A DNA stretch of 41,745 nucleotides from a virus, in the IMG/VR virus record IMGVR_UViG_3300045988_173571, positions 1 to 41,745 of that record, one strand, 5' to 3'. Below are positions 1,493 through 41,745 of this stretch, in pieces. Numbering within the stretch: position 1 is the first letter of the stretch; each line of letters starts with the position of its first letter. A program made the position numbers and the translations under genes. The notes beneath the pieces are model-generated. The model saw only the letters and a program-made list of their open reading frames with translations, ran no database searches and was not told the origin of the DNA.

Positions 1493-1574
1493 CCTTACAT
1501 CTAATGTTTCTATTAATCAGATGAGCTGTAAATATTATAGCTTATCTTTGATTATCTATCAAGGAGGAGTTTTT

Positions 1575-4499: not shown

Positions 4500-5192
4500 T
4501 CAAAGTCCTTCATTTTTTAATAGTTCTAATGCATCAGCTTTTTCATTAATAAAACGATTTCTAAGACCTATTTTTACTACGTCATAGCTACCATTTGCCC
4601 AATCTTTGGGGCTGTGATAAGTACCTTTAGAAGTCATATATGCATTATCACATTCTTGGATCAGAAAATCATATATGCATTCAATCATTTCTCTATCAAA
4701 GCATTTATCATCTACCCAGCTAATCTCTGGGTGTCCCATAAGTCTTACTGCTTCTGTCCAAAGCTCATACATATTATTTGGGCCATATTGAATGGCACGA
4801 CTAAATAATACAGCTTTCATAGCTTCACTATGTTTGGTGATGTCATATTTACTATTTAATAGATTAAAATAACCTGCATTATAATACATATCGCCTGCAT
4901 ATTCGTCTTGCAGTTTGCCAAAACCTTCGGCGTCTATTGTACCGATAGATTTCCATTCATTTATAAATTCTCTTGAATTAACTGGATAGGCATTTTTCAG
5001 GACTCTGCCATAATTTGCATAGCAGTCTTCAGGGTAATTGCACAGCCATTCAACAAAATTTTCAACTACTCCTGCTTCACTGGAAAACTGATACCTTCCA
5101 TAAGATTTACCGCCTAAATCTCCGCTTCCTGTACTGACTGTTGCAGGATTGCCACCTGCTTCATACTTAAGTACCAATTGATTGTTTAACAT
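4500..5192 (-). CDS. Putative endolysin, lysozyme-like peptidoglycan hydrolase (VgrG3 C-terminal / chitosanase-like pattern)
   Basis: N-terminal YEAGGNPATVSTGSGDLGGKSYGRYQFSS fits the E-x-GG...GG-x-SYG-x-YQ catalytic-region pattern of that lysozyme-like family. RBS aggagtg. Sits in the lysis region. Confidence 0.65.
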   Translation of the reverse strand: MLNNQLVLKYEAGGNPATVSTGSGDLGGKSYGRYQFSSEAGVVENFVEWLCNYPEDCYANYGRVLKNAYPVNSREFINEWKSIGTIDAEGFGKLQDEYAGDMYYNAGYFNLLNSKYDITKHSEAMKAVLFSRAIQYGPNNMYELWTEAVRLMGHPEISWVDDKCFDREMIECIYDFLIQECDNAYMTSKGTYHSPKDWANGSYDVVKIGLRNRFINEKADALELLKNEGL

Positions 5193-5204
5193 TTTTCACA
5201 CTCC

Positions 5205-5282
5205 TAAATAAGAAAACCGCCACAATATTAAGTTATTAGTAGCGGTTTTTACTGTTACTGTATTAAGTTTCCAAAATGTAAA
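5205..5282 (-). promoter_or_regulatory. Late regulatory element, copy A: promoter-like TTTACA...AGTAAC followed by a leader hairpin and T-run, upstream of the endolysin
   Basis: Minus strand reads TTTACATTTTGGAAACTTAATACAGTAAC..AACCGCTAC-17nt-GTGGCGGTT-TTCTTATTT. About 70 nt are closely similar to 32880..32956. Confidence 0.55.
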
Positions 5283-5301
5283 TTTTAAAGTCTATACCTT
5301 T

Positions 5302-5766
5302 TTAATAAATAATATAATTTTTTGCTATATATTCATCAAATATTTTACCTTCTTCGCCATCAATGTCATTTAGATATACGGCTTTGGCAAAGTCAATATA
5401 GGTACGTATATCATTTTTAAATACGTTACCTGCGTCAGAATAGAGCATATTTAAAAGATAATACCAATCATATTTATTTACTTTTAAATTATTTTGTGTA
5501 GCTAGATTACTAGTCTGCTCTATGCTCCAATGCTCACCAAAAGAACCATCAAAATGTTTCATTTTTCCTACTGCTTCTTTGGCCATGTTTTCGCAAAAAT
5601 GTTTTCCATGTTTTAATACATGCAATTTTAAACTAATGCGGTTGTATGTGCCCTCGTCAAAATGTTTCATCATGCGTAGCATTTTACAAGATAACTCTAT
5701 CGCTTCATCTTTTTTATAATCATCTTGCAAAAGTTCTTCATATATTTTTTCACAATTTATTTTCAT
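5302..5766 (-). CDS. Hypothetical protein (154 aa), family of unknown function with a HWSIEQT...YDWYYLLNMLYSD motif
   Basis: RBS gaggaaa 6 nt before ATG 5766. The longer track start at 5793 would overlap the upstream gene. Confidence 0.6.
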   Translation of the reverse strand: MKINCEKIYEELLQDDYKKDEAIELSCKMLRMMKHFDEGTYNRISLKLHVLKHGKHFCENMAKEAVGKMKHFDGSFGEHWSIEQTSNLATQNNLKVNKYDWYYLLNMLYSDAGNVFKNDIRTYIDFAKAVYLNDIDGEEGKIFDEYIAKNYIIY

Positions 5767-7767: not shown

Positions 7768-8016
7768 TTATATGAATTTACTTTTTATCAGCGACTTACT
7801 TATAAGGTCATAGCTTCTTTTAATGTCTCTCTGGATTGTTTCTTCAGATAGGTTCATCATTTGAGCTATTTTCACTATTTCTATATTCTTAAGTATTCGC
7901 AGTTCTATTATTTTTTGCTGTCTAGGAGTAATCTTCGCATGATATAAGATATCTTCAAACGCTTGTCTATCTGCATTTATAAGCCAGTATCTGGCATTTT
8001 TTCTATTTTTATCCAT
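7768..8016 (-). CDS. Sigma-70 region-4-like HTH protein (82 aa), probable late-gene transcription regulator
   Basis: ITPRQQKIIELRILKNIEIVKIAQMMNLSEETIQRDIKRSYDLI matches the region 4 (LTPRQREV..L..S..EIA..LG.S..TV) pattern. No regions 2 or 3. Confidence 0.7.
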   Translation of the reverse strand: MDKNRKNARYWLINADRQAFEDILYHAKITPRQQKIIELRILKNIEIVKIAQMMNLSEETIQRDIKRSYDLISKSLIKSKFI

Positions 8017-8029
8017 GACCTTATTCCTT

Positions 8030-8479
8030 TTATTTTCTCATCACTTTATCATCAGCGAATTGTGCCAGTTTATCCTTGAATTTTTGGGGTACTGGTACAC
8101 CACAATTTGCTACATTTTCTAATATAGATAATCCCTCGTTTCCTAAGTAAAATAATGCAATAATATTGCGAGTCAAATCGTTTTGACCAATAGCATTATC
8201 AAAGAAGTGGCCAAGCATGACCATGATTAAAATTACGCCTTTTCGCTTTAATCCGTTCCAACCTTTTCTGCTGTCTAGCTTTTTGTGAGGATTTATCCAT
8301 GCAGACATGACCCCTGTTATATAATCAAAAAACATAAATACAATCAAAGTTTCTAAAAGCGGGGACCATTGCCCTAAAAAATAATTAACCACAGTACCAC
8401 AAAAAGCCACTATAACACCTACTTCTATTTCTAATCTTACTGGTATCAATGATTTTAAAAATATACTAAGCTCCTGCAT
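8030..8479 (-). CDS. Holin (Phage_holin_4_1 / Hol44-like, 3 TM)
   Basis: FDYITGVMSAW...SRKGWNGLKRKGVILIMV...GNEGLSILENVANCGVPVP is characteristic of this Firmicutes phage holin family. gaggtg lies 6 nt before ATG 8479. Confidence 0.8.
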   Translation of the reverse strand: MQELSIFLKSLIPVRLEIEVGVIVAFCGTVVNYFLGQWSPLLETLIVFMFFDYITGVMSAWINPHKKLDSRKGWNGLKRKGVILIMVMLGHFFDNAIGQNDLTRNIIALFYLGNEGLSILENVANCGVPVPQKFKDKLAQFADDKVMRK

Positions 8480-8498
8480 TTTCATCACCTCATTATCA

Positions 8499-10933: not shown

Positions 10934-13900
10934 TTAATATCTCCTTACGTTCTTAGATTTCCCCTTTTTCTTTGGTTGTTTCGGTTTTTCTGGTATCACT
11001 CTTTCTACTGGCTTTTTATTAAAGAGTGCAGACCAAATAATATTTTTAAGGTTCGTATCATATCGACCATCACCATCAGCTATATATTGCATAGTGGTGA
11101 AGACACTATTTGCCATGGTACTTGTTATACCTGTTCTAGCTGCAAAAAATGTTGTACCTATTTCGCCTGTAGCTTTTGCTATATCTGCATAGGTTATGCG
11201 TTTTGGTGGCTTTTGGTACTGTTTATCTTCAAGCATGGTCTTTCTTTTCTTTGCCCCTGCCTTCATATATTCAGCTTGCCATTTAGCTTCCTTATCTGCT
11301 ATCTCTAAATCTTTTTCTGCTTTTTTATCTAGCAGTTTATATAGTGCAGTTATCTTTTCACCGCCAGCAAGTGCCACATTAGAAAAGCCAATACCTCTAC
11401 CATAATCTGTACCTTCAAAACTTTCATTGATAAAAAAGCTTGCTATATCTCGTACACCCCACATAGTGCCAGCCATAGTGGATAAAGTATTTTTGCCAAA
11501 CTGTGTCAAAAATCTTTGCATTGCAGGTATCTCTATTTTTTCTTCTGTACCCTCTGCATTTTTCACCTTTTCATATTTATGCTTATCATCATTTCCATCA
11601 CCGAGCAGTGCCATACGTAGCATAGTAGATAATGCAGAAGTAAGCACAATACGATATAGAAAAGACCTTGCCACAGGTAGCCACCTTGTAATATTTTCAC
11701 CCATTGTAGTCGGCTTCATAAATTTTCCTTTATAGTAAGCTTGCAAGATAGCATTAGCCTGCGTATTAAAGAAAGTGTAAAAAGGTGTAAATAATTTCAG
11801 CAACTCTCCACCTTTTTGGATAGATGCTAAATCTTTTGTCTGTCCACTTCCGAATACTTCACGAATAGATTTATCAGCTTCAGCAATGGAACGACTTTCA
11901 GCTTCAGCCAAGATTTCTTTATCTGTTAAGAATCTAAGCTCACTCGCATTATCTAGCTCTACTTCCGCCATATATAAATCTTTTTGTAGTTGATTTAATT
12001 CTTCTCTTGTATTTACAAAAGTCTTAAAATCCCCCACTTGATTTATATTTGTACCTTGCACATCAAAATTTGATTTCAATGCATTTTGTTGCAGGTCCAT
12101 TATTCTAGCTCTGATTGTAGATACCTTAGCTTGTGCATTTTGCAATTTTTCTACATTAGCTTCATTTTCTTTTTTTACCTCATTAAGTTTTTTAGCATAG
12201 GCATCTTTATAGCTTCTACACCATAACGGAGCAGAAAACATCAAATCACTATAGGTCATAAGTGTGTATGCATGTTCTTTTAAAAATCCTGTTACTAATC
12301 TATCTTCATCAAATAATCCCGGAATGTATTTTATATCCCTGTCCATATGATTTAGCCTATTCTTCATAAAGATTGATTTATGCAACACTTCTTGATATTT
12401 ACTTATATTTGTATAGTAATCTGCTATTGCTACTAAAGATTTCATAGCACCTAATTTATCCATCATTGGTGCAATGTTGGTCATATTTTCAATTATTGGA
12501 TAAAGTCTATATCCCATTATTGCAAATGTGGAATTTGTTCTTAAATAGCTAAGCATTTTAGACACTTTTTGCACTGTTTTATTATTACTAGCTTCTGGTA
12601 TCACTCGCCAATTATCCACTGCCCATTCATCTAATACCTGGTATATTTCTTTACCCATAGTTCTATTTACATATTCTTCAAATTGTTTATTTTTTACTAA
12701 TCTATAAACATCTCTTGCTGGTATTCTATGCGTTATATTGTGGATTACATTTGATAAATGGTCAGGTATTACACTAAATTCTAAAAGCAACGCTCTATCA
12801 ATATTTGCCTGTGAACGTGCCTTTGTAAATCCTCTGCCAGTGCCTAATACTTGTGCACCGCTCATAGTACGTCTTACCGCTTCATTTACCTCTTGTTCAT
12901 TGGCTCTATTGCTCTTTAGTGGATTAGCTACTATAGGATAATAGCCACCTTCTAAATGCAATATCTCGCCATCAGGTAACTTCACATCAAATGGTGTTGG
13001 CTGTTGCGGTTTTAGTGTTACGCCGTTTAATTCTTGCTCTACCCTTACTGTATCTTTCCAGAAAGAATGTAAATGATTCCATATATCTTGTACCATTTGC
13101 CAATCCTTTTTGGTCATATGCTTTTCAACAAATTCTTTGAGATATTCTTCTGTCAAGCCAAATCCTACAGCAAGACGGCTTCTATTTATATCATTACCTA
13201 GGTTTAGAGCCATACAGATAATATTTTCTTTTGATAGATTTTCTACTGTACCATCTTCAAATTCCAATTTATACTGCTGTTTCTTCCATGATAATTTTTC
13301 ACTATGGCTATAATCTTTTAAAATTTCTTTTATCTTATATACGTTTTTGGTCATCATTTCAGCTTCAAGATTAGATGCTCGCTCATACGTTTCATACAGA
13401 TATTTATGAGCTTTTGTTCCCAAAATATTTATTATTTCTTCTGGTTTCATCATGGAACTTAAATATTTTGCACCGCCACGAGCCATAGCGTCCCCAATAA
13501 GTGGTATCTTATCCACTAAATCGTTATAGCCAAGACCGCCTTTATCTGGATTTATCTTTTTATTTATTACCATTGACCTGTTATAAGCAGTATCATCAAG
13601 TATTATTTCATTTATAGCATCATCTATAGATTTCCCCTGTATAGTTTTTAGCTTGAATTTATCTCTACCTGTTGTATATAAGATATCTAGTGCTTCCACT
13701 GCGTCCTCGAATTGGGCTATAGTCATAGATTGATAACCGCTGAAATCACTACGGCTTGTTATCTCTAATATATCTGTTGGGGTATATTCTAAATCCAAGC
13801 TGTCTTGTAATCCCTTGAATAAATCTGCAAGTGGTGTTATTCCGTCTACAGGTGGATTAGCATCTTTATTTGTGATACCTAAGATATAGGCTAAATGTTT

Positions 13901-16900
13901 ATGCCAGTATCGTTCTTGTGCTGGTAATTTTATGGATCGTACTTTTAGCTGTTTATTCACCTTCTCTATTTTCTTTTGTATATACAATTTATTTTTCAAT
14001 GCCTTTTGAGCCATAGCAGCAGAAATATACTGTGCTTCTTTTTCTTTCATGGCACGCTCCCAGTTACTAGCCTTTACAGCTTGTTTTACTCTGCGTGCAT
14101 GCATACTTTCATTCTTACGATAAAGAGCTACATTACAAGCTTCAAAAATAGTTTTGCCGTCCAAAGCACGCTCTGCCATTTCCTTGAACATTTTCAATTT
14201 ACCTTCATGGGCTTTTTCTATGGCTTCACGATTTATCTTTTGCTGTTTTGTTTCTTCTACAAATTGTTTAAAAGCTTCAGCTAAAGTTTCTTTTGTATTG
14301 CTATTAAACATTGCTTCAATTTTTCCTAAATCTTTGGCATTCCATTTAGTGCTAAATCTAAGCTTATTCAAAGCGTTCATCACATTTTTTACTCTAGCAT
14401 CTTCTTTATCTACTTTTAAATCTGTGTAATCATCAAGGGCATTTAATTTATCTTCTACATCTTGCATAGCAACTTGCGTTTTAGAGCCTATTTTATTTAT
14501 CAATTTTACTTTTTCATTAAATATCCTAGTTTCCATTGCCACAAGTTTACTTGTATACTTACTATCTTCCATAGCCTGCAAGATATTTTCTTCGGATAAA
14601 TGGCTTTCCATTAGTTCAGTATCTAAAGTTTTTTCATACTGCTTCATGTATTCATCAAGTGCAGTCTGTATAGGCTTAGTATTTTTTAGGGCCTGTTTAT
14701 ATTCTTCTACGCTACCAAACCAATTAAGAACTATATTTATATCTCCTGCTTCTTTATAAGCTTCTTGAGCTATATATACAGGTTGATTTTCTAATTCATT
14801 TAGTTTATAAGCTCGCTCTTTTTCTACACGTTCATCAAATTTTGCTTTGGCTTCAGCTTTTAAATCTTGCATTACTATCTTCATTAAATGCTCTTTGGCT
14901 TCTTCTGTAGCTTCCTTGTGCCAACGTTTATAAGTTTGTTCTTCCGTTTCATCAAGTAGCTTTTCACCGCCTGCCTTAGTGATATCTCTATATCTATCAT
15001 CTAATGCCATTTGATTTATTTCTTCTTCTGTAGCCACCATACGTTGCATTATGGCTTCTACTTTTGAGCTTGCTACTCCGCCAATAGAAGTAAATCCAAT
15101 ATAGATATCACGCAAGAATTTTTTAAACTTACGGAACACATCTTTTAAGCCTTTACTTGGTGCAGTTCCTTTTTGTAAATATAATTCAAATGCCCTTGCA
15201 AATCGTTCTTGTCGCCATGCTTCTTTTAATTCTTCCACTTTGGCTACATCACCAGCATTTTTAGCATTTATTATACTTTCATGACGTGCTTTAAATTCTT
15301 TGTACCATGGAGCATTTTTATATTCATCAATGGATTTTTCATTTTTCCAACTTGCCCAATCATTTACTATATCCAATTCTTTTTTAGATAATTCATCAAT
15401 CTTAGCAAGCTCATCTAAATCCATTAAAAACATATGTGCCATTTCATGTACAAAAGTTGATTCATCAGCAGATTTATACAGATTGATAACACGCTGACCA
15501 TTACTCAATAAAGTGATATCACCTTTTATATTGGCAGTAGTTTCATTTTTTATTTTTTGTACCTTTTTCTGTACTACTTTTTTATTTTTTTCTTCTACTT
15601 TTTCAGCAGTTTCTTGTATGATATTTACTTCTTTATTGGTTAATTTAGGTGCTTCTTTTTTTGCTGTTATAATTACTTTCCCATCACTGCTAACAATTGC
15701 ATTTTCATCATGAATAGTTGGTTTATTTAATAGATTATAATCTCCTCTACCTACTCTATTAGCAGTTTCCCTTGCTTCTTGTTCACCCCCTAAATTCATA
15801 TAAACTTCTATATCATCTATTTTTTGCAAGTCCCAATATAACTTTGCTTTTTCAAATTTTTCTAAATCAGCATTTTTTAATGCTTCAAGTTCACTTGTTC
15901 CCTCTTTTCTCAAGTTTTCACTTTGAGCTTTTGATTTCCAAAAAGCACTATTATATGCTTTTATTTCCTTCAATACTTCATCATAAAGTTGGTCTAAAAT
16001 TTCTTGCTTAGAATTTAAATTTCCGCCACCTGCAAACCCTTCTATTTTCTGAATTAAGTGTTGTATTTCATGTACGATATTAATTTTCATTTTATCTGTA
16101 TCTACATTCAATCTATCATTTATTACTATTACACTTAATTTTTTGCCATTAATATCTACATCTCTAGCACTAGCTTGATGTTCTATACTTTTACTTTTTT
16201 CTTTTAAGACTAATATATCTCTAAGTTGTGGATAGGCTTCATATAGTTTTTCATTCTTATAAATCTTATCTAATGAAATAGAATTTGTTTCATCAAAACT
16301 GTTTGCTAAAGTTATATTATTTATTTTTTCGAGAGGTTTCATATCAAATAATTTAGTATCATCAGGTATTTCAAATCTCCATTTATTATCTTTTCCTTTT
16401 ACCCAACCTGTATATTGCCAAATTACCTCATCAGTATATTCACCCTCTGCATCTAATTGCTTAGCTATTTTTAATTGTTCAATGTTTTTATTTAGTGCCT
16501 TTTCGCCTGCAAATTGTTTATATGTTCCTTTTCCTTTTACAGTATTTAGAGCAAATCTTTCATTGTAATAAGTCATGGCTGTGTAGTTTTCATTGCCATG
16601 TCTTCGCATTATGTCTGCCACTATATCTGCATGTCTAGCAAATAAAATAGCACTCATACGGCTTGCACGTTTTACTTTTCCGCCAGCATTTTGAAGTTGT
16701 TTTGATAGGCGATTATATACTGCATATCCGTCTTTAGTAAGTCCTTCAGCCAACCTCATTTCTACACCATTTAAATTGCTAAGCTGTGGTTTTATCTCAT
16801 CTAATACCTTCAAATTATTATCTATATCATCTAGTATATTTTTATTTTCAGCCAAAGCTTGCACAGCTTCAGGAGTTGTTGCTTGCCATGTTGGTATAGA

Positions 16901-19405
16901 TGGTGCTGTTTCATCTCCTACAGTTAATTTATAAGCCATATCTTCAATTTCTTTATCAGTCATGGCTCTGTTATGTTTAGCATAGAATTCCTGATACCAT
17001 GTATCATTTTGTTCTATGCTCTTTTTTATGGCATCTATTGCAGGCACTAAAATATTATTTCTTTCATTTATCTGGTCATCACGGACTTGTTTCCAACCTT
17101 TAGCTGGATTAGATACATTATTGTAAATTACAGCTTGTGCCATAGTCTGCTGTTCTTTTGTACCATTTGCAAATTGTTCTTGCATTATGGCATCTATCAG
17201 CATACGTTGCTTATCTGCTGTTTTTTGTATACTATCTTGCATTTCACTTGTTATAGTTTCAGCATTTTTTCTTAGCTTGCCGATTGGATCTGCTTCTTGA
17301 TTGAAAGTTACAGCACGCATGATATCGCTTGTAGTTTCCGCTTGAGCAAATTTCGCTGTAGGAATTGCAAGCGTTCCACCTATTTCAATAGCTGTTTTTA
17401 AATCTTCCTGCGTATATCCTGCTGTCTTTGCCAATGTTTCAAGGTCTTGCTTTCCTGTTTGACTTTCAAGTGCTGTAGGTATATCTACATAAGCCATTTC
17501 AAAACCTGTATTATCCAGTTGGCTACGCAACAATCTTTCTTGTACCTTTGGTGCTGTCTTTTTTAATTTGCTATTTCTAACAGCAGATTGTAATCTTTCT
17601 AACATCAGTGTACCTGCGAAAGTTTGTCTAGTGCTTTGCTCCAATTTAGCATTATTACTCATCAATCTTTTTAGATTGCGAGAAAATCCCAAAGACTCAT
17701 TGAAGCCACCTACTCCAGCAGATATCACACCAAAGCCAATAGCTCCTGGTAGTGCTTCGCCTGCACTCATCAAAGCACGCTGTGCAATCTCTGTAGCTGT
17801 ATATACTCTATTTGTAGTATCGCCAGTATCTTGCATTATTTGATTGTGTACCAAATCATCAGATATTGATTGCAAACCTTCTTCGCCACTTTCCGCCATA
17901 GATACCTTAGCTATTGCACTTGCTCTATTAGTGAAGAAAGATTTTATACCTTCTTTGGCTAGTGCTTGTTTTTGTGCTGTAGCGATAATTTCTTTTACAG
18001 TCTGCTTGGCTACGTTGCCTGTGAATGCGTCCTTGATTAAACCAAAATCTAGCATTTCAATACCAGCATTTAATGCACCTGCTACTACTGCATAATCTTG
18101 AGCTGCTTCATCTGAAAGTAGTGGCTTTCCATCTTCGCCTTTCAAGTCTTTGAATTCTGCATAATATCCGCCAGTTGCAGGCTTTGCCATACCTGCAAAC
18201 ATTCCATATCTTGCTAGATATCCACCTGTTAATCTTGCTCCTTGCATAGCTCCTTGTCTTATGGTATTTGTCCTTATAACATTTAAAATACCACCACCGA
18301 CTGCACCTGCTAAACTACCACCTACATTACCTATTACAGGAACAGCTGAACCTGCTAAAGCACCTGCTACCATACCTGCACTAGCACCTATAGCAAAATC
18401 ATCTATCATCTCGCCCATAGACTGTATCATCATTGGCATAGAGCCAGCCACTCCGCCTGCTATTACAGCAAATGGATTATCTAAAAATGCAGGTAGATTT
18501 GGTGCTTGTTCTAATTGTTTTTTTAATTCATCAATGCGAGCCTTATCTTCTTCCGTTGCCTGCCCTGTCATTAATTTATAATTTAAATTGCTATATTCAA
18601 GATGTTTATTTCCGTACTCCCACATTTTATTAAAAGAGTCAATGACTCCCTGCGTTTCTCTTACGCTATTAATATCATGTAGAGCTAGTGCAGCTGATTG
18701 TGCGTCCATACTAGCTATATTTTTTAATTCTGGAAATTCATTAAATACATCATTCATATCTCCGCCAAGTTCTTTTTTCTTCTTAGCGTAGTTATAAATC
18801 TCAATGGCTTCACGATATGCAGTAGTATCATTTAAAAACTCTTTGGCTTTTATGCCTGTTTCATTTTCAATCTCAATGGCTTTTTGAAGTTTTTCCTCAT
18901 CAGTCATCATGTAATTTACATAGGCATTGCTCTCTTGTATTCCCTGTGCTACATCTTGCAATATGCTTTCATTGTCATCACTATAGCGATTTACAATGGC
19001 ACGGCTTACTTGTTTTAATGGTGAATAAATAAGTTCTTGCCCTGCCTGTTGTAAATTTTCTACAGCTTTATTTTGAAAACTATAATCGCCTGTTTCATTT
19101 GCTTGATTAATATTTGCTGTAGTATATGCTCCAGTAATATTTCTTTGCTCATCTAAAAAATTATGATAAGCATTGTTGATATCACTAGCTGTATTTACTA
19201 CTAAATCTATCCCTTGCCCTGCTGTTTGCAGTGCGTCCTGTGCAATTTCTGTAGACTCTTGGGCTACTTGTCTATTTATATCAGATTGATTTGTTACTAC
19301 TTCGCCAATCTGTTCAAATATGGATTTTTCTTCTTCAGGTGGCTGTTGCTTTTCTGCTACCTTTTTATTTACTAAATCACTAAATTTATTTACGTCTAAA
19401 GCCAT
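10934..19405 (-). CDS. Giant (2,823 aa) internal virion / DNA-ejection protein with polyvalent-protein features and two zincin HExxH motifs
   Basis: Single uninterrupted ORF with RBS taggagt. HEIQH at residue 1112 (nt 16058-16072) and HEMAH at residue 1320 (nt 15434-15448). Gly/Ala-rich hydrophobic segments around residues 310-385. Occupies the T7 gp16 position. Confidence 0.9.
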   Translation of the reverse strand: MALDVNKFSDLVNKKVAEKQQPPEEEKSIFEQIGEVVTNQSDINRQVAQESTEIAQDALQTAGQGIDLVVNTASDINNAYHNFLDEQRNITGAYTTANINQANETGDYSFQNKAVENLQQAGQELIYSPLKQVSRAIVNRYSDDNESILQDVAQGIQESNAYVNYMMTDEEKLQKAIEIENETGIKAKEFLNDTTAYREAIEIYNYAKKKKELGGDMNDVFNEFPELKNIASMDAQSAALALHDINSVRETQGVIDSFNKMWEYGNKHLEYSNLNYKLMTGQATEEDKARIDELKKQLEQAPNLPAFLDNPFAVIAGGVAGSMPMMIQSMGEMIDDFAIGASAGMVAGALAGSAVPVIGNVGGSLAGAVGGGILNVIRTNTIRQGAMQGARLTGGYLARYGMFAGMAKPATGGYYAEFKDLKGEDGKPLLSDEAAQDYAVVAGALNAGIEMLDFGLIKDAFTGNVAKQTVKEIIATAQKQALAKEGIKSFFTNRASAIAKVSMAESGEEGLQSISDDLVHNQIMQDTGDTTNRVYTATEIAQRALMSAGEALPGAIGFGVISAGVGGFNESLGFSRNLKRLMSNNAKLEQSTRQTFAGTLMLERLQSAVRNSKLKKTAPKVQERLLRSQLDNTGFEMAYVDIPTALESQTGKQDLETLAKTAGYTQEDLKTAIEIGGTLAIPTAKFAQAETTSDIMRAVTFNQEADPIGKLRKNAETITSEMQDSIQKTADKQRMLIDAIMQEQFANGTKEQQTMAQAVIYNNVSNPAKGWKQVRDDQINERNNILVPAIDAIKKSIEQNDTWYQEFYAKHNRAMTDKEIEDMAYKLTVGDETAPSIPTWQATTPEAVQALAENKNILDDIDNNLKVLDEIKPQLSNLNGVEMRLAEGLTKDGYAVYNRLSKQLQNAGGKVKRASRMSAILFARHADIVADIMRRHGNENYTAMTYYNERFALNTVKGKGTYKQFAGEKALNKNIEQLKIAKQLDAEGEYTDEVIWQYTGWVKGKDNKWRFEIPDDTKLFDMKPLEKINNITLANSFDETNSISLDKIYKNEKLYEAYPQLRDILVLKEKSKSIEHQASARDVDINGKKLSVIVINDRLNVDTDKMKINIVHEIQHLIQKIEGFAGGGNLNSKQEILDQLYDEVLKEIKAYNSAFWKSKAQSENLRKEGTSELEALKNADLEKFEKAKLYWDLQKIDDIEVYMNLGGEQEARETANRVGRGDYNLLNKPTIHDENAIVSSDGKVIITAKKEAPKLTNKEVNIIQETAEKVEEKNKKVVQKKVQKIKNETTANIKGDITLLSNGQRVINLYKSADESTFVHEMAHMFLMDLDELAKIDELSKKELDIVNDWASWKNEKSIDEYKNAPWYKEFKARHESIINAKNAGDVAKVEELKEAWRQERFARAFELYLQKGTAPSKGLKDVFRKFKKFLRDIYIGFTSIGGVASSKVEAIMQRMVATEEEINQMALDDRYRDITKAGGEKLLDETEEQTYKRWHKEATEEAKEHLMKIVMQDLKAEAKAKFDERVEKERAYKLNELENQPVYIAQEAYKEAGDINIVLNWFGSVEEYKQALKNTKPIQTALDEYMKQYEKTLDTELMESHLSEENILQAMEDSKYTSKLVAMETRIFNEKVKLINKIGSKTQVAMQDVEDKLNALDDYTDLKVDKEDARVKNVMNALNKLRFSTKWNAKDLGKIEAMFNSNTKETLAEAFKQFVEETKQQKINREAIEKAHEGKLKMFKEMAERALDGKTIFEACNVALYRKNESMHARRVKQAVKASNWERAMKEKEAQYISAAMAQKALKNKLYIQKKIEKVNKQLKVRSIKLPAQERYWHKHLAYILGITNKDANPPVDGITPLADLFKGLQDSLDLEYTPTDILEITSRSDFSGYQSMTIAQFEDAVEALDILYTTGRDKFKLKTIQGKSIDDAINEIILDDTAYNRSMVINKKINPDKGGLGYNDLVDKIPLIGDAMARGGAKYLSSMMKPEEIINILGTKAHKYLYETYERASNLEAEMMTKNVYKIKEILKDYSHSEKLSWKKQQYKLEFEDGTVENLSKENIICMALNLGNDINRSRLAVGFGLTEEYLKEFVEKHMTKKDWQMVQDIWNHLHSFWKDTVRVEQELNGVTLKPQQPTPFDVKLPDGEILHLEGGYYPIVANPLKSNRANEQEVNEAVRRTMSGAQVLGTGRGFTKARSQANIDRALLLEFSVIPDHLSNVIHNITHRIPARDVYRLVKNKQFEEYVNRTMGKEIYQVLDEWAVDNWRVIPEASNNKTVQKVSKMLSYLRTNSTFAIMGYRLYPIIENMTNIAPMMDKLGAMKSLVAIADYYTNISKYQEVLHKSIFMKNRLNHMDRDIKYIPGLFDEDRLVTGFLKEHAYTLMTYSDLMFSAPLWCRSYKDAYAKKLNEVKKENEANVEKLQNAQAKVSTIRARIMDLQQNALKSNFDVQGTNINQVGDFKTFVNTREELNQLQKDLYMAEVELDNASELRFLTDKEILAEAESRSIAEADKSIREVFGSGQTKDLASIQKGGELLKLFTPFYTFFNTQANAILQAYYKGKFMKPTTMGENITRWLPVARSFLYRIVLTSALSTMLRMALLGDGNDDKHKYEKVKNAEGTEEKIEIPAMQRFLTQFGKNTLSTMAGTMWGVRDIASFFINESFEGTDYGRGIGFSNVALAGGEKITALYKLLDKKAEKDLEIADKEAKWQAEYMKAGAKKRKTMLEDKQYQKPPKRITYADIAKATGEIGTTFFAARTGITSTMANSVFTTMQYIADGDGRYDTNLKNIIWSALFNKKPVERVIPEKPKQPKKKGKSKNVRRY

Positions 19406-30944: not shown

Positions 30945-32405
30945 TTAAAAGTCTGCAAATGGGTCATAATCTGTATTGCATTTTGTTATTCTTTGGCTTT
31001 TCTTAACAACATTGATTGCAAATGTAAGTGCTAATGCGTCTGCTCTGTTTGGTGAAGCCAATCCTCTTTTTTTCATGGATTCTTTACTTTCAAGTAAGAT
31101 TTCGCCTTTACTATTTATCGTGTATTCTGGGGACGTTAAATCATCTTTTAATTGTTGGTCATCTTCGATAGCCCCGCCATCTATTAACCACTGCTTTGTT
31201 TCTCCCCATATCTCTGCACGCTTATTGGCAAATCCTTTCTTATCCGCTTTAGAACCAAACTGGATTAAATTCCAACTTCTGCCCATGCTAAGACCTGCAC
31301 TATAGATACCAGTACCATAGCCAAAATCTATATTTACGGCATCAGCTTTATACTCATCTTCAAACTTAGCTATAATGTTAGCCATTCGCATATCATCATC
31401 ATTTTTTTGATATTCGCCTAGCAGTTTGCAATATAGCCCTTGTCTTAAATAAATATCCGTTGTATCTCCGCCAGTCCATGCAGGGTCAACACCAATTATC
31501 ACAGGTGCAAACGATACTTGATATTCAAGTATTTTTCTTTTGCTTGCTTCATCAACGATTTTCCTAGGTATAAACTGGTATTCACTAGCATTAGGGAATA
31601 AGCCTCGTACACGCACTCTGACAAAGTCGCTATCTTCACCATAAGTGTCAACCCATTGCTGAAGCTGTTCTTTATTAGATATATCTACAGTTCGGCTATC
31701 TATTTGCCTACATTTCCAAAGATTTCTATGCTTATGGAAACACTCAAAAAACCTTCCTGTATTTCTTGTACCATTTCCAAAAACACACCAGATAATCTGT
31801 GTATCTTTATCTGTTAAAGCACCTTCTGCTACTTCCCAGATTAAGTTTTCAATCGCTGAACCTTCATCGAAAACAAGCAAAATTCTTTTCCCTTGATTGT
31901 GTAGACCTGCGAAAGCTTCGGAATTTTCCTTGCTCCATGGTATAGCGTTTGCTTGCCACGTTTTTTGATGAGCAAATTCTTTTGTAGTAAGTGTAGTAGC
32001 CGTACAGATAAACAAATCTTTTAAAATAAATTTATGAAACCACTTTTGAACTTCTGGCCATGTTTTAGATTTTAGCTGGCTATCTGTATTTGCTGTAACT
32101 ACTGCCCTACTATCTGGATAAGTAGTTATGGACCATAATAAAATCCATGCCACCAAAGCAGACTTACCGATACCATGTCCACTAGATACTGCTATTCTTA
32201 TAGCTGTTTTAGTAGTGAGTAAGTTATCTTTTATATCCTGCAATATATCAAGTTGCCATTCTTGCGGTGATTTTCCTTTTAGCGTTGGGTCATGTTCCCA
32301 GTCAAACGCTGCTTTCACAAATCCTACTGGGTCATTGGTAAAACGTGCCAAAAAATCCAAAGCAGAATTTAATTCATCTTTTGTTTTTATCTCAAAATCA
32401 TTCAT
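30945..32405 (-). CDS. terL: Terminase large subunit
   Basis: Walker A SSGHGIGKS, Walker B ILLVFDEGS, and a nuclease-domain IGVDPAWTGGD motif. Confidence 0.92.
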   Translation of the reverse strand: MNDFEIKTKDELNSALDFLARFTNDPVGFVKAAFDWEHDPTLKGKSPQEWQLDILQDIKDNLLTTKTAIRIAVSSGHGIGKSALVAWILLWSITTYPDSRAVVTANTDSQLKSKTWPEVQKWFHKFILKDLFICTATTLTTKEFAHQKTWQANAIPWSKENSEAFAGLHNQGKRILLVFDEGSAIENLIWEVAEGALTDKDTQIIWCVFGNGTRNTGRFFECFHKHRNLWKCRQIDSRTVDISNKEQLQQWVDTYGEDSDFVRVRVRGLFPNASEYQFIPRKIVDEASKRKILEYQVSFAPVIIGVDPAWTGGDTTDIYLRQGLYCKLLGEYQKNDDDMRMANIIAKFEDEYKADAVNIDFGYGTGIYSAGLSMGRSWNLIQFGSKADKKGFANKRAEIWGETKQWLIDGGAIEDDQQLKDDLTSPEYTINSKGEILLESKESMKKRGLASPNRADALALTFAINVVKKSQRITKCNTDYDPFADF

Positions 32406-32868
32406 CTGCTTTTCTTATCCTTTCCGCCAAAGCGTCTGTTAAGTTTTCATTTTTTACAGTTATATCTGTCTTAACAGTGCTATCCACAACTTGCTTATAT
32501 TTTTCTGGGCAATTAGCTCTAAGTAACATCTGTAGCAAAGTATCAGAGTATTCTTTTTCAGTCGCTATTTCTTCGCCTTTATAATAGATGCCTTTATTAA
32601 TTCCCTTTACTGCCCTTCTATAAGCTTCATCTTCTAGTAGTGATGTAACCATTGGTCTTGCTTCTTGCGTATATGCTTTTCTAAATAGTTCATCATTTCT
32701 AAGCCAACTATAAAAAGTAGTTCGTGATATTTTTCTTTTTTTACAGGTGTCTGTTACAGAGCCACACAATACATATTCATTTAGCCATTTATTTTTATCA
32801 GACTTATTTTTAATCTTTATATTTTTATCGAAAAACTGATATTGATATAAAGATTTTGTTGCTGGCAT
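32398..32868 (-). CDS. terS: Terminase small subunit (HTH type)
   Basis: AGGAGG lies 5 nt before ATG 32868. ...CKKRKISRTTFYSWLRNDELFRKAY...LLEDEAYRRAVKG... is typical of HTH small terminases. Overlaps terL by 8 nt. Confidence 0.75.
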   Translation of the reverse strand: MPATKSLYQYQFFDKNIKIKNKSDKNKWLNEYVLCGSVTDTCKKRKISRTTFYSWLRNDELFRKAYTQEARPMVTSLLEDEAYRRAVKGINKGIYYKGEEIATEKEYSDTLLQMLLRANCPEKYKQVVDSTVKTDITVKNENLTDALAERIRKADE

Positions 32869-32879
32869 AAACACCTCCT

Positions 32880-32956
32880 AGATATAAAAAACCGCTACCA
32901 ATATTAAATTACTAGTAGCGGTTAACCATTACTGTTTTTAGCTTCCAAAATGTCAA
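32880..32956 (-). promoter_or_regulatory. Late regulatory element, copy B: TTGACA...AGTAAT followed by a leader hairpin and T6, upstream of terS
   Basis: Minus strand reads TTGACATTTTGGAAGCTAAAAACAGTAAT..AACCGCTAC-16nt-GTAGCGGTT-TTTTAT. A near-duplicate lies at 5205..5282. Confidence 0.55.
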
Positions 32957-32980
32957 CAAAAAAGTAAAGAGGTTTTTTAT

Positions 32981-33220
32981 TTATTTTTTTATAAAATTTA
33001 TTCCTAAAACTTCGCACAATGCACTTACATCACCAGCACGCATATCATTTCTACCTAATAAGTAAAACCTAAGTCCAAAATAATTTACCTTGCTAATATT
33101 TGCTAGTGTTCTTATATCCATTCCTGTTTCTTTTATTTTGCTAACTATTCTACTTCTAAGCTCATCACTCTTGTCCTTGTTGTAATTTATATTCATGTTA
33201 GTTTCCTCTGCCAAACTCAT
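32981..33220 (-). CDS. Small HTH DNA-binding protein (79 aa), last gene of the early unit
   Basis: GMDIRTLANISKVNYFGLRFYLLGRNDMRAGDVSALCEVLGI has an XRE-like helix-turn-helix pattern. Confidence 0.6.
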   Translation of the reverse strand: MSLAEETNMNINYNKDKSDELRSRIVSKIKETGMDIRTLANISKVNYFGLRFYLLGRNDMRAGDVSALCEVLGINFIKK

Positions 33221-36479: not shown

Positions 36480-37382
36480 TTAGCTCGTATTGCTTTTGCT
36501 TCTAGGCTTTTTGTATTTTATTAAGAAATTTACTTTGTTTAAATCCTGTGTAAAGTAGATTTCTTTTTTGAGTCTTTTAGCTTCCATTTTTTCCTGCAAG
36601 TTTATTCGCCTTGTAGGTTTATCAATTTTTATTAGTCTGTAAAATTGGTATTCATAATCGCTTTCTCCGTTACCGAATGTATAAATACCATTTATAAGAC
36701 TGTTTTTGTCCAGCATGTATCCTTTTGGAATTCTTGGTTCTCTTAGCCAATATTTCCTACGCACAATAACGCTAGTAACCTGCGGTTTTCGCAAGTTTTT
36801 GCTAGCGTTGTACCTTTTTTTATATATAGTTGGAGCAGTAAAGAAAGCATTTCTATTTTTCTTTACCATATAATTTGCGAGGTCTTCGGCATCTGTTATT
36901 TGTCCGCCATAGATTTTTACAGATACGAAGCCATGACCCCAAAGATTTTTTATATCCGTTGGATTTACCTCACAGCCTTCAACTTTTAAAAGCAAATGAT
37001 GGTGAATTCTCTGCTGTTTTGAAGTACATTCCGTACAAAATATATACTTCACCACAGCATTTTTCTTTTTATAGAAACGAATTAGCTTCTGCCTAAAATT
37101 AGCCAAATGCTTTTTTGCTTCTTCTGGTGTCGGTTCTTTTTTATTTTCCTCTTTCTTATCTTTATAAGTTAGAGATAGAAATAAATCCCCATCACCAAAA
37201 TTATTTAGAATAAGAAGCCTTAACAAATTTATAGAATTCTTGTTGTTTACTTCTTCTTGTGCCAAAGGAGTAAGTCCCATTTTTGGGCTTCTTATATTAT
37301 TCTTTACAGGTAATTTCTTGGTGTAATATATCTCCAAGATATTATTATTATTTATACTTGTCTGTTTCTTAACATAAGACAT
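36480..37382 (-). CDS. HUH rolling-circle replication initiator (pC194 / phiX174 A superfamily-like)
   Basis: Motif 1 FLSLTY, motif 2 RIHHHLLLK, motif 3 LANYMVKK, in the canonical order and spacing. Confidence 0.75.
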   Translation of the reverse strand: MSYVKKQTSINNNNILEIYYTKKLPVKNNIRSPKMGLTPLAQEEVNNKNSINLLRLLILNNFGDGDLFLSLTYKDKKEENKKEPTPEEAKKHLANFRQKLIRFYKKKNAVVKYIFCTECTSKQQRIHHHLLLKVEGCEVNPTDIKNLWGHGFVSVKIYGGQITDAEDLANYMVKKNRNAFFTAPTIYKKRYNASKNLRKPQVTSVIVRRKYWLREPRIPKGYMLDKNSLINGIYTFGNGESDYEYQFYRLIKIDKPTRRINLQEKMEAKRLKKEIYFTQDLNKVNFLIKYKKPRSKSNTS

Positions 37383-38212: not shown

Positions 38213-38318
38213 GTGTTATTAACACATTTGAATTTATCCTAAACACATTATAATAAATATTTTTTGTGCTGTCAACACATTTTGAATATTTATTATTTTT
38301 ATTTTGTGTTGACAACAC
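38213..38318. promoter_or_regulatory. Three 13-bp operators GTGTT-N3-AACAC of the lysis/lysogeny switch
   Basis: O1 gtgttattaacac (38213-38225), O2 gtgctgtcaacac (38266-38278), O3 gtgttgacaacac (38306-38318), plus a half-site aaacacatt at 38241. Confidence 0.65.
38247..38275 (-). promoter_or_regulatory. Early promoter (consensus)
   Basis: Minus strand reads TTGACA (38275-38270), 17 nt, TATAAT (38252-38247). O2 overlaps the -35. Confidence 0.7.
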
Positions 38319-38357: not shown

Positions 38358-38855
38358 ATGCTAGATGAAAATATAAAAGAGCGTATAAAGGAAATAAGAA
38401 AATATTACCAATTAAATCAAGACGATTTTGGAAAAAAACTTGGTATAACTAGAAGTGTAGTTGTTAATATTGAATTAGGTAGAGCTCCAATAAAGAATTT
38501 ATTAATAGACCATGTTTGTGATATCTATTCTATTAATAAAGAATGGTTATTATATGGAGCTGGTGAAATGCTTAAAAGTACAGAACAAAATTTGCTAAAT
38601 GACCTAGTAAAAGAATTCGATTTAGATGAAGATGAATTATCAATTATAAAAAGCTATATAAATCTTCCTAAAATTCAGCGTAAAAATTTTGTTTCTATTT
38701 TAAAAGCTATGGTAAGTCCTTCTGATGAAGAAAAAACTTACGACGAAAAGCTTAATCAAGTCGCTGATGAACTTAAGGTAACAGAGAAAAAAGGAACATA
38801 TCAAGTTTCCACTACTACAAATACTACAAACAGTTCCACAGAAAAAAGGGCATAA
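38358..38855 (+). CDS. XRE/CI-like repressor
   Basis: IKEIRKYYQLNQDDFGKKLGITRSVVVNIELGR is an XRE HTH. Has a C-terminal extension and RBS aaggagg. Divergent from the early unit. Confidence 0.85.
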   Translation: MLDENIKERIKEIRKYYQLNQDDFGKKLGITRSVVVNIELGRAPIKNLLIDHVCDIYSINKEWLLYGAGEMLKSTEQNLLNDLVKEFDLDEDELSIIKSYINLPKIQRKNFVSILKAMVSPSDEEKTYDEKLNQVADELKVTEKKGTYQVSTTTNTTNSSTEKRA

Positions 38856-40005: not shown

Positions 40006-40102
40006 GCCAAAAATATGTATTCTCTAAATGGATTTTATCAAAAATTTGACCGAGTTTGATTGACTCTGCCAAAAATACTATATATTGTGTTTTATTCTAA
40101 AT

Positions 40103-40158
40103 TTATATTATTTTTATGGTATTTTTATATTATTTTTCTATTGACATTATATTATTTA
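40103..40158. repeat. Three direct repeats TTATATTATTT(T) with an exact 22-bp period
   Basis: Copies start at 40103, 40125 and 40147. A fourth copy is at 1413 in the AP2 promoter. Confidence 0.55.
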
Positions 40159-40169
40159 TATGGTATTAT
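40141..40169 (+). promoter_or_regulatory. Promoter of the acidic-protein gene
   Basis: TTGACA (40141-40146), 17 nt, TGgTATTAT extended -10. Confidence 0.6.
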
Positions 40170-40222
40170 ATAAGTGTAGTAAGGAACTACAAGAAATAAA
40201 TAACAAAAAGAGGTAATTAATC

Positions 40223-40706: not shown

Positions 40707-41423
40707 ATGATAATTAGTATTGTAAACCAAAAAGGCGGTGTTGGTAAAACTACTACTGCCCAAAACCTAGCAGCAGGACTAAGAAAATTTTATAAAAAGA
40801 AAGTCTTGCTAATTGACCTAGATTCACAATGCAATTTATCTAATGCAGAAAATTGCATGAATAATAAGTATAATATTTTCGATATGCTCACAGAAGAAAC
40901 AGCTGTAGATGAGTGTATCCAAAACGATATGATTGCTGGCTCGCCTGATATCGTAAAAATTCAAGGTGGTGCAGGATATGAATTTATCTTGCACGATTTA
41001 CTCATGCCCATAAAAGATAAATATGACTACATCATTATTGATACAGCTCCAGCACTTGGAATTACTACAATTAATGCTTTATGTGCGAGTGATTATATAA
41101 TCATCACTGCCCATGCAGATACTTTTTCTGCACAGGGTATAAATATCTTGATAGAAAAAATACAAAAGGTGCAAGTAAAAATAATGGGTGTTCTTCTAAC
41201 TAGATTTAAAGCTAGAACTATAATAGCTCAAAACATATTAGAAGACTTAAAAATAAAAACAGTTGATTATGGAACAAGAGTTTTTGATACGCAAATAAGA
41301 GAATGCGTAGCTATTCCAGAAGCTCAAAACTTAAAGCAAAATATTTTCGATTATGCAAAATATAGTAATGCTGGTCGAGATTATAAAAGTTTCGTTAACG
41401 AGGTAATAAATTATGGCAAATAA
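40707..41423 (+). CDS. parA: Partition ATPase, small type Ib ParA
   Basis: Deviant Walker A NQKGGVGKTTT, IIIDTAP Walker B-like motif, 238 aa with no N-terminal HTH domain. Confidence 0.92.
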   Translation: MIISIVNQKGGVGKTTTAQNLAAGLRKFYKKKVLLIDLDSQCNLSNAENCMNNKYNIFDMLTEETAVDECIQNDMIAGSPDIVKIQGGAGYEFILHDLLMPIKDKYDYIIIDTAPALGITTINALCASDYIIITAHADTFSAQGINILIEKIQKVQVKIMGVLLTRFKARTIIAQNILEDLKIKTVDYGTRVFDTQIRECVAIPEAQNLKQNIFDYAKYSNAGRDYKSFVNEVINYGK

Positions 41424-41745
41424 AAAGTTCACTGTAGCATCGGAATTTTTCACAGATAAAAAACCGATCGAAGATAAAATTAAAAAACCAATACCAACAC
41501 CTACAAAAAATACTAAAAAAACAGTATTTCTCTATGTTACAGAAGAAATAAAAGCTCGTCTAAAAGATAAAGCTACTAGCGTAGGCAGAACAGTAACAGG
41601 CTACATTAAGCAGACTTTAAAAAAGAATATGTATAATGAGCTTAATGATGTAGAAAAACTGTTTAAACCACAAGGTAAAATATGTTTAAACCTTGATATG
41701 GATTTATATATCAAGGTAAAAGAAGAAGCTCAAAAACAAGACCGA
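41413..41745 (+). CDS. 5' part of the partition-partner ORF (tandem ribbon-helix-helix, ParG/CopG-like); continues at nt 56..109
   Basis: The ATG overlaps the end of parA by 11 nt. The first RHH unit is TVFLYVTEEIKARLKDKATSVGRTVTGYIKQTLKK. There is no stop before the window end. 128 codons in total across the junction. Confidence 0.7.
   Translation, partial: MANKKFTVASEFFTDKKPIEDKIKKPIPTPTKNTKKTVFLYVTEEIKARLKDKATSVGRTVTGYIKQTLKKNMYNELNDVEKLFKPQGKICLNLDMDLYIKVKEEAQKQDR
41691..41745. repeat. Terminal overlap, exact copy of 1..55
   Basis: Same 55-mer as the window start. Confidence 0.95.

Follow-up and report, generated by a model that had tools for sequence, protein, structure and literature searches.

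The 41,745-nucleotide (nt) viral sequence IMGVR_UViG_3300045988_173571, analysed here at its full length and referred to as the window, carries two copies of a control cassette of ~95 bases in which an unusual promoter-like box is followed by a terminator-like RNA hairpin. Both copies lie on the minus strand, one at 32980-32884, ahead of terS (32398-32879; phrog_4044, 1e-26), and the other at 5303-5207, ahead of the gene for a VgrG3-C-like peptidoglycan hydrolase (4500-5205; PF21277, 1.2e-31), a plausible though putative endolysin that is called the lysin below. The terS interval includes its Shine-Dalgarno (SD) sequence, AGGAGG at 32879-32874, with the ATG at 32868, and the lysin interval likewise includes AGGAG at 5205-5201, with the ATG at 5192. 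Each copy thus heads a gene block, packaging in one case and lysis in the other, and the lysin has a signal of its own, apart from the holin gene (8030-8488, PF05105), as an earlier note on this sequence had pointed out. The terS copy directly follows the last early gene, which encodes a 79-amino acid (aa) XRE/Cro-type helix-turn-helix (HTH) protein (32981-33220, minus strand), and the lysin copy begins at the end of a DUF7841 gene.

The two copies align with a mean column identity of 83% over 141 columns, and the genes that adjoin them are unrelated. The 25-nt core of the hairpin, AACCGCTACTARTAAYTTAATATTG, occurs exactly twice in the window when up to three mismatches are allowed, against 0.00 occurrences expected from 100 dinucleotide shuffles, and a search of all 41,745 nt revealed no cassette beyond the terS and lysin copies. 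The minus-strand sequences on which the earlier note based its proposal of a duplicated late-gene signal are indeed present upstream of both genes, and the proposal itself is borne out, with a terminator-like hairpin placed between a conserved promoter-like element and the SD. The conserved unit nevertheless begins ~25 nt further upstream than had been indicated, which adds an A-tract and a -35-like hexamer. The 17-nt segment then singled out as a -35 hexamer plus TTTTGGAA is found twice with up to three mismatches against 1.16 expected, which is within chance; what makes it significant is that it is linked to the hairpin and conserved among relatives.

No DNA-level similarity to annotated phages was found (GenBank phages returned nothing in a blastn search with the terS region), and relatives were gathered by protein-based searches. 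The sister genomes (the IMG/VR "trio", L160 and L207) have the cassette at both places, as in the window; L207, once considered as the lysin side of the L136 genome, was rejected in that role and is a trio-type genome. In a second set (L136-138, L143 and L148, with 71-83% TerS identity), the box precedes terS, no hairpin follows it, and a canonical terminator whose sequence differs among genome types lies upstream of it. L144 and L145 contribute a locus syntenic with the lysis region of the window (holin, 82-aa protein gene, DUF7841, lysin), in which a canonical terminator is followed by CTTGACAAAATAATTTACCATTTTGGAAATT and then by the lysin SD, just 9 nt after GGAA. These box-bearing genomes form group A together with the window. 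The box is absent from group B (L139-142 and L151, with TerS 59-64% identical), where the gene just ahead of terS encodes a DUF1492/LtrB-like protein of 117-124 aa and is followed by a conserved TTACGCTATA motif and then by a hairpin of the same shape, with its T-run, immediately before the terS SD. In some group-B leaders (L141, L142 and L140), an anti-SD-like CCUCC is also present and able to pair around the hairpin with the SD of terS, a sign that translation may be controlled as well in those genomes. More distant TerS relatives and phage phi11 show the classical order of terminator, promoter and terS, and TerS-profile scans of genomes and metagenomes added one more trio-type locus and distant relatives with that classical layout, and no isolate host. 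Searches by motif were less productive. The exact cassette motif had no match in IMG/VR; a box-only pattern hit at least 119 IMG/VR stretches, and among the matches listed these were chance occurrences except for the trio contigs already known; a hairpin-apex pattern retrieved three additional contigs, all coincidences within coding sequence; and a literature search for the box string returned nothing informative.

The promoter-like module of the terS copy (32940-32980) consists of an A-tract at 32978-32973, a -35-like TTTACT at 32968-32963, a 16-nt spacer and the box ATTTTGGAAGCT at 32951-32940. Its counterpart at the lysin (5266-5303), delineated by alignment with the terS copy and by comparison of architectures, consists of an A-tract at 5303-5299, which overlaps the stop codon of the DUF7841 gene, a -35-like TAGACT at 5294-5289, a 16-nt spacer and the box ATTTTGGAAACT at 5277-5266. 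When eight group-A copies from 6 genome types were compared, anchored on the box, all of them displayed the same succession of A-tract, -35-like hexamer (TTGACA, TTTACT, TAGACT or TTGCTT), 16-17 nt, and GGAA within an invariant ATTTTGGAA(A/G)(C/T)T. Conservation of the box, which the earlier note had proposed as a check, is thus borne out within group A, the bases ATTTTGGAA and the final T being invariant throughout the alignment.

The canonical sigma-70 hexamers initially assigned to this region fare differently. The TTGACA at 32956-32951, which with its TTTACA counterpart abuts TTTTGGAA and was read as a -35, falls within the spacer of the terS-copy module and is GTGAGA in the sister phages, and the AGTAAT/AGTAAC read as a -10 varies to GGTAAT and AGTAAG in relatives. 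In L144, which lacks the hairpin, the -10 so assigned would overlap the SD, with the start site coming after it, so that these hexamers are neither conserved at a fixed spacing nor consistently compatible with a start upstream of the SD. The same locus constrains the box itself. A strong terminator lies just upstream of the L144 module, the box is 9 nt from the SD, and GGAA is only 23 nt from the ATG. Any start site there must hence lie within ~10 nt after the box, which places the box within the core promoter and not upstream of it. The same 23-nt distance rules out the box as the -35 element of an extracytoplasmic function (ECF)-like factor. The box would instead appear to occupy the -10 position, where GAAnnT retains A-11 and T-7. 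Perfect TTGACA-17-TATAAT sequences make up the early and lysogeny promoters of this genome, suggesting that the late module is deliberately non-canonical and implying a dedicated factor.

The hairpin starts 17-20 nt past the end of the 9-nt core box ATTTTGGAA; if the module is a promoter, a terminator thus lies shortly downstream of a late promoter. At terS, the terminator-like structure with its T-run (32884-32923), called as such and borne out by folding and conserved pairing, comprises a stem-loop at 32923-32890, with 14 base pairs (bp) including 2 G·U and a loop of AUUUAA, and a T6 at 32891-32886; it ends ~10 nt before the SD and only 21 nt from the ATG. At the lysin, the corresponding element (5207-5249), identified by folding and pairing comparison, has a stem-loop at 5249-5213, with one bulge and one U·G pair, and an interrupted T-run. 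The placement of a hairpin and T-run between the promoter-like element and the ribosome-binding site thus stands as first described, and the stem, put at 9 bp in that description, is actually 13-14 bp long including G·U pairs, with a 6-nt loop. Both are stable stem-loops with a base rich in G+C. Predicted folding energies are -19.1 kcal/mol (z = -5.9 against shuffles) for the terS hairpin and -15.4 kcal/mol (z = -6.5) for the lysin hairpin, on par with other predicted terminators of the window. A T-run is found in every copy, the 3' tails being UUUUUUAU at terS, UUUUCUUAUU at the lysin, CUUUUUAU and UUAUUUUAU in the trio, and U5-6 in group B.

Comparison of eight aligned hairpins from groups A and B, amounting to ~6 independent sequences, places 97% of cells in standard pairs, against 26-61% in controls with a slid 3' partner. 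Four pairs have changed on both sides, answering the call for covariation in relatives, and every non-Watson-Crick pair is a G·U on the sense strand, a pattern that fits a helix formed in RNA transcribed in the same sense as the genes, and not a DNA palindrome or an antisense transcript. The same pattern, the 16-nt separation of the arms and the senselessness of two pac sites in one genome led to the rejection of the hairpin as a DNA palindrome, pac site or operator. The hairpin is conserved more strongly than any other part of the cassette, with 88-97% identity among the four hairpin-type copies. The segment 3' of it tracks gene orthology, and the proximal upstream part has been homogenised between paralogs in the trio. 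A mini-open reading frame (ORF) of 5 codons (ATG GTT AAC CGC TAC TAG, 32929-32912, minus strand) overlaps the 5' arm of the terS hairpin, with an equivalent (ATG GGA AAC CGC TAC TAA) in the terS copies of the trio; it has no SD, is absent from the lysin copies and is probably fortuitous.

No conservation of loop sequence was seen between groups A and B in the eight hairpins, and no competing RNA structure or antiterminator fold was found in the leaders, the terS hairpin dominating folds of the whole leader. A search of Rfam 15, which includes cis-antitermination RNAs, yielded over the terS hairpin only a chance-level match to mir-451 (23 bits, where the gathering score is 66.5). The possibility that the stem is a special recognition sequence was discarded when the group-B stem was found in 36 IMG/VR stretches from ~10 unrelated families (grouped by eye), mostly as end-of-gene stem-loops followed by a T-run, together with some matches in coding sequence. 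A trans factor specific to hairpin-bearing genomes was likewise rejected, since no protein is common to the window, the trio and group B yet absent from the hairpin-less genomes. Variable loops, a stem shared with unrelated phages, and the lack of both a co-occurring protein and a rival fold all point to a generic structural role, namely termination, and not to a sequence-specific partner.

The distribution of terminators across relatives provides the strongest indirect evidence that the hairpin truly works as a terminator. At each hairpin-less junction (terS in L136, L143 and L148, and the lysin in L144), a canonical, non-homologous terminator lies upstream of the box module, and each hairpin-bearing junction is devoid of an upstream terminator. 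Box and hairpin are hence separable modules, the former standing without the hairpin in close relatives and the latter without the box in group B, where the helix is the same yet the activator is different. On this comparative basis the hairpin is likely to be a functional intrinsic terminator. It is not, however, essential to the late switch, because close relatives retain the box and the same sigma-70 region 4 (r4) protein and dispense with the leader hairpin.

Two proteins of the window are candidates for the factor that such a module would call for. The first is the 82-aa sigma-r4-only protein encoded directly after the holin gene (7768-8016, minus strand), which the earlier note had put forward. 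It exceeds the Pfam cut-off for PF04545 (Sigma70_r4; 29.3 bits against 24.1), shares PHROG 36/248 with the group-B LtrB/DUF1492-like proteins, and is modelled (pLDDT 89) with a fold that matches region 4 of sigmaE on -35 DNA, all of which make it a reasonable, LtrA-like candidate. Its gene is present in all the group-A genomes examined, always after the holin, and was found only in this phage group; a tblastn search of the protein against annotated phages gave no match. The second is the 79-aa HTH protein, an alternative candidate activator by virtue of its position. Its model (pLDDT 84) matches HipB, ClgR, SinR and C-proteins (TM ~0.7), and homologs occupy the same place in L136, L143, L148 and the trio. 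Across group A, both proteins accompany the box. Among the window proteins, none of the Q, N or NusG kind scored above threshold in Pfam, PHROGs or NCBIfam. The obligatory antiterminator invoked in the earlier note is therefore unproven, given also the lack of a competing leader fold and the relatives that keep box and r4 protein without a leader hairpin.

The wider transcriptional layout bears on what the hairpins might do. A consensus sigma-A-type early promoter (TTGACA-17-TATAAT, 38247-38275, minus strand) heads a leftward unit of ~35 kb, and the first strong terminator-like structure downstream of it is the terS hairpin. The coding strand of this unit contains only three internal terminator-like hairpins, those of the two cassettes and a canonical intrinsic terminator in the late region (6254-6232, minus strand; AAGAGCGGAG-CAA-CUCCGCUCUU followed by U6), and all three are followed by an SD and a start codon within ~10 nt, with no room for a promoter. 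After the terminator at 6254-6232 these belong to a 143-aa gene, in a layout conserved in L144, L005 and L207. With no promoter after the terminator, expression of the 143-aa and DUF7841 genes depends on read-through, making this the third such place.

Taken together, these observations lead us to favour, with a little better than even confidence, a reading in which the cassette is a duplicated, factor-dependent late promoter coupled to an intrinsic terminator that serves as insulator and attenuator within the leader. The promoter would be made up of the A-tract, the -35-like hexamer, 16-17 nt and ATTTTGGAA(A/G)(C/T)T in place of a -10, and transcription would start a few nt past the box, near a conserved ACAG. 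It would be activated by a phage protein, the 82-aa r4 protein and/or the 79-aa HTH protein. The terminator, transcribed as part of the leader and ending ~10 nt before the SD, would insulate two dangerous gene blocks, packaging/morphogenesis and the endolysin, by stopping upstream transcription, such as that of the early operon from ~38275, which would meet no other terminator, as well as basal firing of the late promoter itself. Polymerase would then get past the hairpin through incomplete termination or through a resistance to terminators on the part of the activated complex, two options that seem roughly equally likely. Active relief would fit the position of the hairpin downstream of the promoter module, the strength of the terS terminator and the terminator at 6254-6232 without a promoter after it; counting against it are the absence of an antiterminator gene, the second promoter copy at the lysin and the dispensability of the hairpin in close relatives.

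Several points weigh against the reading as a whole. GAAnnT is a very poor -10, we know of no factor that recognises ATTTTGGAA, and the putative start site is placed by spacing. Placing so strong a terminator (U6, -19 kcal/mol) ahead of a 27-kb structural operon would carry a cost unless it is relieved, and neither an antiterminator gene among the window proteins nor an alternative fold in the leaders was found that could relieve it. The r4 gene lies within the late region and not upstream of terS. The hairpin sample is small (~6 independent sequences), and the similarity between group-A and group-B hairpins could be partly convergent, a similar stem being an ordinary terminator in unrelated phages.

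Should this reading hold, the insulator between early and late transcription would sit inside the late leader and not in front of the late promoter, and the endolysin would have a private copy of the switch. Genes whose expression is lethal or wasteful in the carrier state would thereby be shielded from upstream read-through as well as from leakage of the promoter, something that a phage with a plasmid lifestyle may plausibly require. The natural variants in which a terminator lies before or after the same module would offer a ready-made test of how placement affects the tightness and timing of lysis, and the ATTTTGGAA box could help annotate late promoters in these largely uncharacterised phages. 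A more specific form, in which the 82-aa protein recognises the ECF-(-35)-like GGAA(A/G)(C/T)T box and joins the transcribing complex, so that polymerase resists the leader hairpins and the terminator at 6254-6232, strikes us as quite unlikely. A free-standing sigma domain would in that case provide an epsilon15-like phage-plasmid associated with Veillonella with Q-like, promoter-loaded antitermination, and, the r4 gene being in the late operon, the late switch would feed back positively on itself, with leakage through the terminators setting its threshold.

The alternative that survives best, though still unlikely, takes the initial assignments literally: a sigma-70 promoter (TTGACA/TTTACA, 17 nt, AGTAAT/AGTAAC) with its start at the base of the hairpin, an efficient terminator in the hairpin, an obligatory processive antiterminator loaded at the promoter as in lambda Q / PR'-tR', and TTTTGGAA as the factor-binding element. 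The hexamers do exist in the window, an invariant spacer element close to a terminator resembles the Q-binding element (QBE) and PR'-tR' arrangement, the promoter-less terminator at 6254-6232 likewise needs read-through, and the 82-aa protein has a faint match on its r4 HTH to PF06530 (Phage_antitermQ; E = 0.084), far below threshold. Against these stand the GTGAGA of the trio-type phages and the variable -10, the L144 geometry that would put the start site after the SD, and the presence of the same box and r4 protein in relatives without a leader terminator. Moreover, two promoter copies would be needless if polymerase were processively modified, no Q/N/NusG-family gene was found in the window, and the 82-aa protein is predicted to fold as a plain sigma r4 and not like Q.

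It is quite improbable that the promoter is instead nested in the terminator, with the box and ACAGTAA as an upstream activator site, TTTAAT/TAATAT at the hairpin apex as the -10, and the start in the 3' arm or T-run. Late transcripts would then lack the full hairpin and escape termination, early read-through would still be stopped without any need for antitermination, and the leader of ~25 nt would compare with the 23-nt leader of phi11 terS, whose RinA-dependent start has a -35 region that shares sequence with the terminator hairpin. All apices in groups A and B do hold a -10-like hexamer (TTTAAT, TAATAT, TAGATT or GATATT), but such hexamers are expected by chance in AT-rich loops, and no acceptable -35 lies 16-18 nt from them. 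In addition, the complete box module occurs without a hairpin in L136, L143, L148 and L144, 9-36 nt from the SD, and a module that stands alone in this way is most simply a self-contained promoter.

A post-transcriptional role, in which the hairpin stabilises the 5' end against 5'-end-dependent RNases, marks a processing site or is bound by a phage or host RNA-binding protein that sets terS and lysin translation, is very unlikely. Conservation at the RNA level within ~10 nt of the SD would be in keeping with such a role, as would a stem that is longer and an apex that is more AT-rich than in typical terminators, and the CCUCC pairing with the SD in some group-B leaders. It would not account for the T-run after every copy or for the matching of hairpin loss by gain of an upstream terminator; the loops differ between groups, no protein co-occurs specifically with the hairpin, and the SD is not sequestered in group A. 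Least probable is that there is no promoter at all and that a recombination scar or mosaic-boundary sequence plus a terminator has been copied between junctions, with late genes read through from the early promoter, for although repeated sequences are frequent at phage mosaic joints and paralogs are homogenised in the trio genomes, the box is invariant where genome flanks have diverged, persists immediately behind strong canonical terminators, a position that demands fresh initiation, and retains its block spacing of 16-17 nt.

The rest of the window has the features of a phage-plasmid. Its ends (1-55 and 41691-41745) are identical over 55 nt, indicating a circularly assembled complete genome of ~41.69 kb, and its GC content is 32.6%. 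Phage-plasmid features include a rolling-circle replication (RCR)-type Rep (PF23343), a CI-like HTH_19 protein and ParA (36480-37382, 38358-38855 and 40707-41423, respectively), and the CI-like gene is flanked by divergent consensus promoters at 38275 (minus) and 38309 (plus). No integrase was found in the window, and some relatives (L140 and L146) have a serine recombinase. The morphogenesis genes are podovirus-like, with a T7-type portal and a tail-fibre N-terminal domain, and TerL is ~52% identical to that of epsilon15-like phages. The only hint of a host is a homolog of the 82-aa protein, P0096, annotated at NCBI as "ECF-type sigma factor [Veillonella sp.]" (WP_295282181.1); the phage group is probably Veillonella-associated. 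Further features deserve mention on their own account. A 583-aa ORF (1521-3272, plus strand) without a Pfam match contains ~7 diverged repeats, ~160-175 nt apart where adjacent, each with a TGTGATTGTGG (Cys-Asp-Cys-Gly) motif; it is 57% identical in sister genomes that are otherwise ~95% identical, which marks it as fast-evolving, and it may be an accessory or defence-related gene. The tail/ejection region includes a 2823-aa ORF (10934-19405, minus strand) whose L207 homolog has PF18838 (LPD23, a large polyvalent protein domain). Two AT-rich clusters of direct repeats (40069-40175 and 1368-1441), whose units resemble TTATATTATTTTTAT and are spaced by 11, 22 and 33 nt, sit upstream of the region that holds the 117-aa ORF and ParA and close to the 583-aa ORF, and could be iterons, parS sites or operator arrays.

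Viewed against known systems, the cassette appears to be a variant of phage late-gene switching, to judge from comparative sequence analysis. The regulators described in Firmicutes phages as Ltr-type late activators comprise RinA, ArpU, the sigma70_r4-like LtrA, the DUF1492 protein LtrB and LtrC, and a terminator between ltr and terS has been described in these phages (PMC3753634; PMC3152322). As in those systems, the non-canonical promoter that immediately precedes terS would depend on a small phage activator, terS would be insulated from the early operon by a terminator, and the window encodes an Ltr-family candidate in its sigma70_r4-only, LtrA-like protein. In group B, a DUF1492/LtrB-like gene does lie directly before terS. 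The window differs in that the gene upstream of terS encodes an XRE-type HTH protein and the r4 gene follows the holin at 7768-8016. It differs too in that the known order is ltr, terminator, promoter and terS, whereas in the window and trio the hairpin lies downstream of the module and none lies upstream. The order of terminator before promoter does hold in L136, L143, L148, L144 and phi11; in the last, 48 nt separate the end of the hairpin from the ATG, with the transcription start site 23 nt ahead of that codon, whereas the hairpin of the window comes after the module, 21 nt from the ATG. Finally, Ltr-type systems are described with a single late promoter, and here the lysin has a second copy. 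The variants in terminator placement also bear on whether sigma-r4-type "Ltr" proteins only activate initiation or also aid passage through terminators, and the distant RinA binding site of phi11 is compatible with either role (PMC3152322).

The lambdoid PR'-tR'/Q system shares with the cassette, as read here, a late promoter closely followed by an intrinsic terminator, a conserved element in the promoter region and additional terminators inside the late unit. It differs in the absence here of a Q-family protein, in the presence of two cassettes instead of one and in the existence of close relatives without the leader terminator; a promoter-proximal, -10-like pause element could not be assigned at the cassettes from sequence. 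The late promoters controlled by P2 Ogr, Mu C and TP901-1 Alt provide a third comparison, in that several late units share one non-canonical promoter and one phage activator, but those promoters have no leader terminators, and their activators act at inverted or direct repeats located 5' to the -35, unlike the -10-proximal box described here. The cassette system would hence seem to work most like Ltr-type control of late operons, combined with a terminator placement resembling that of lambda PR'-tR', and to have the defining layout of neither.

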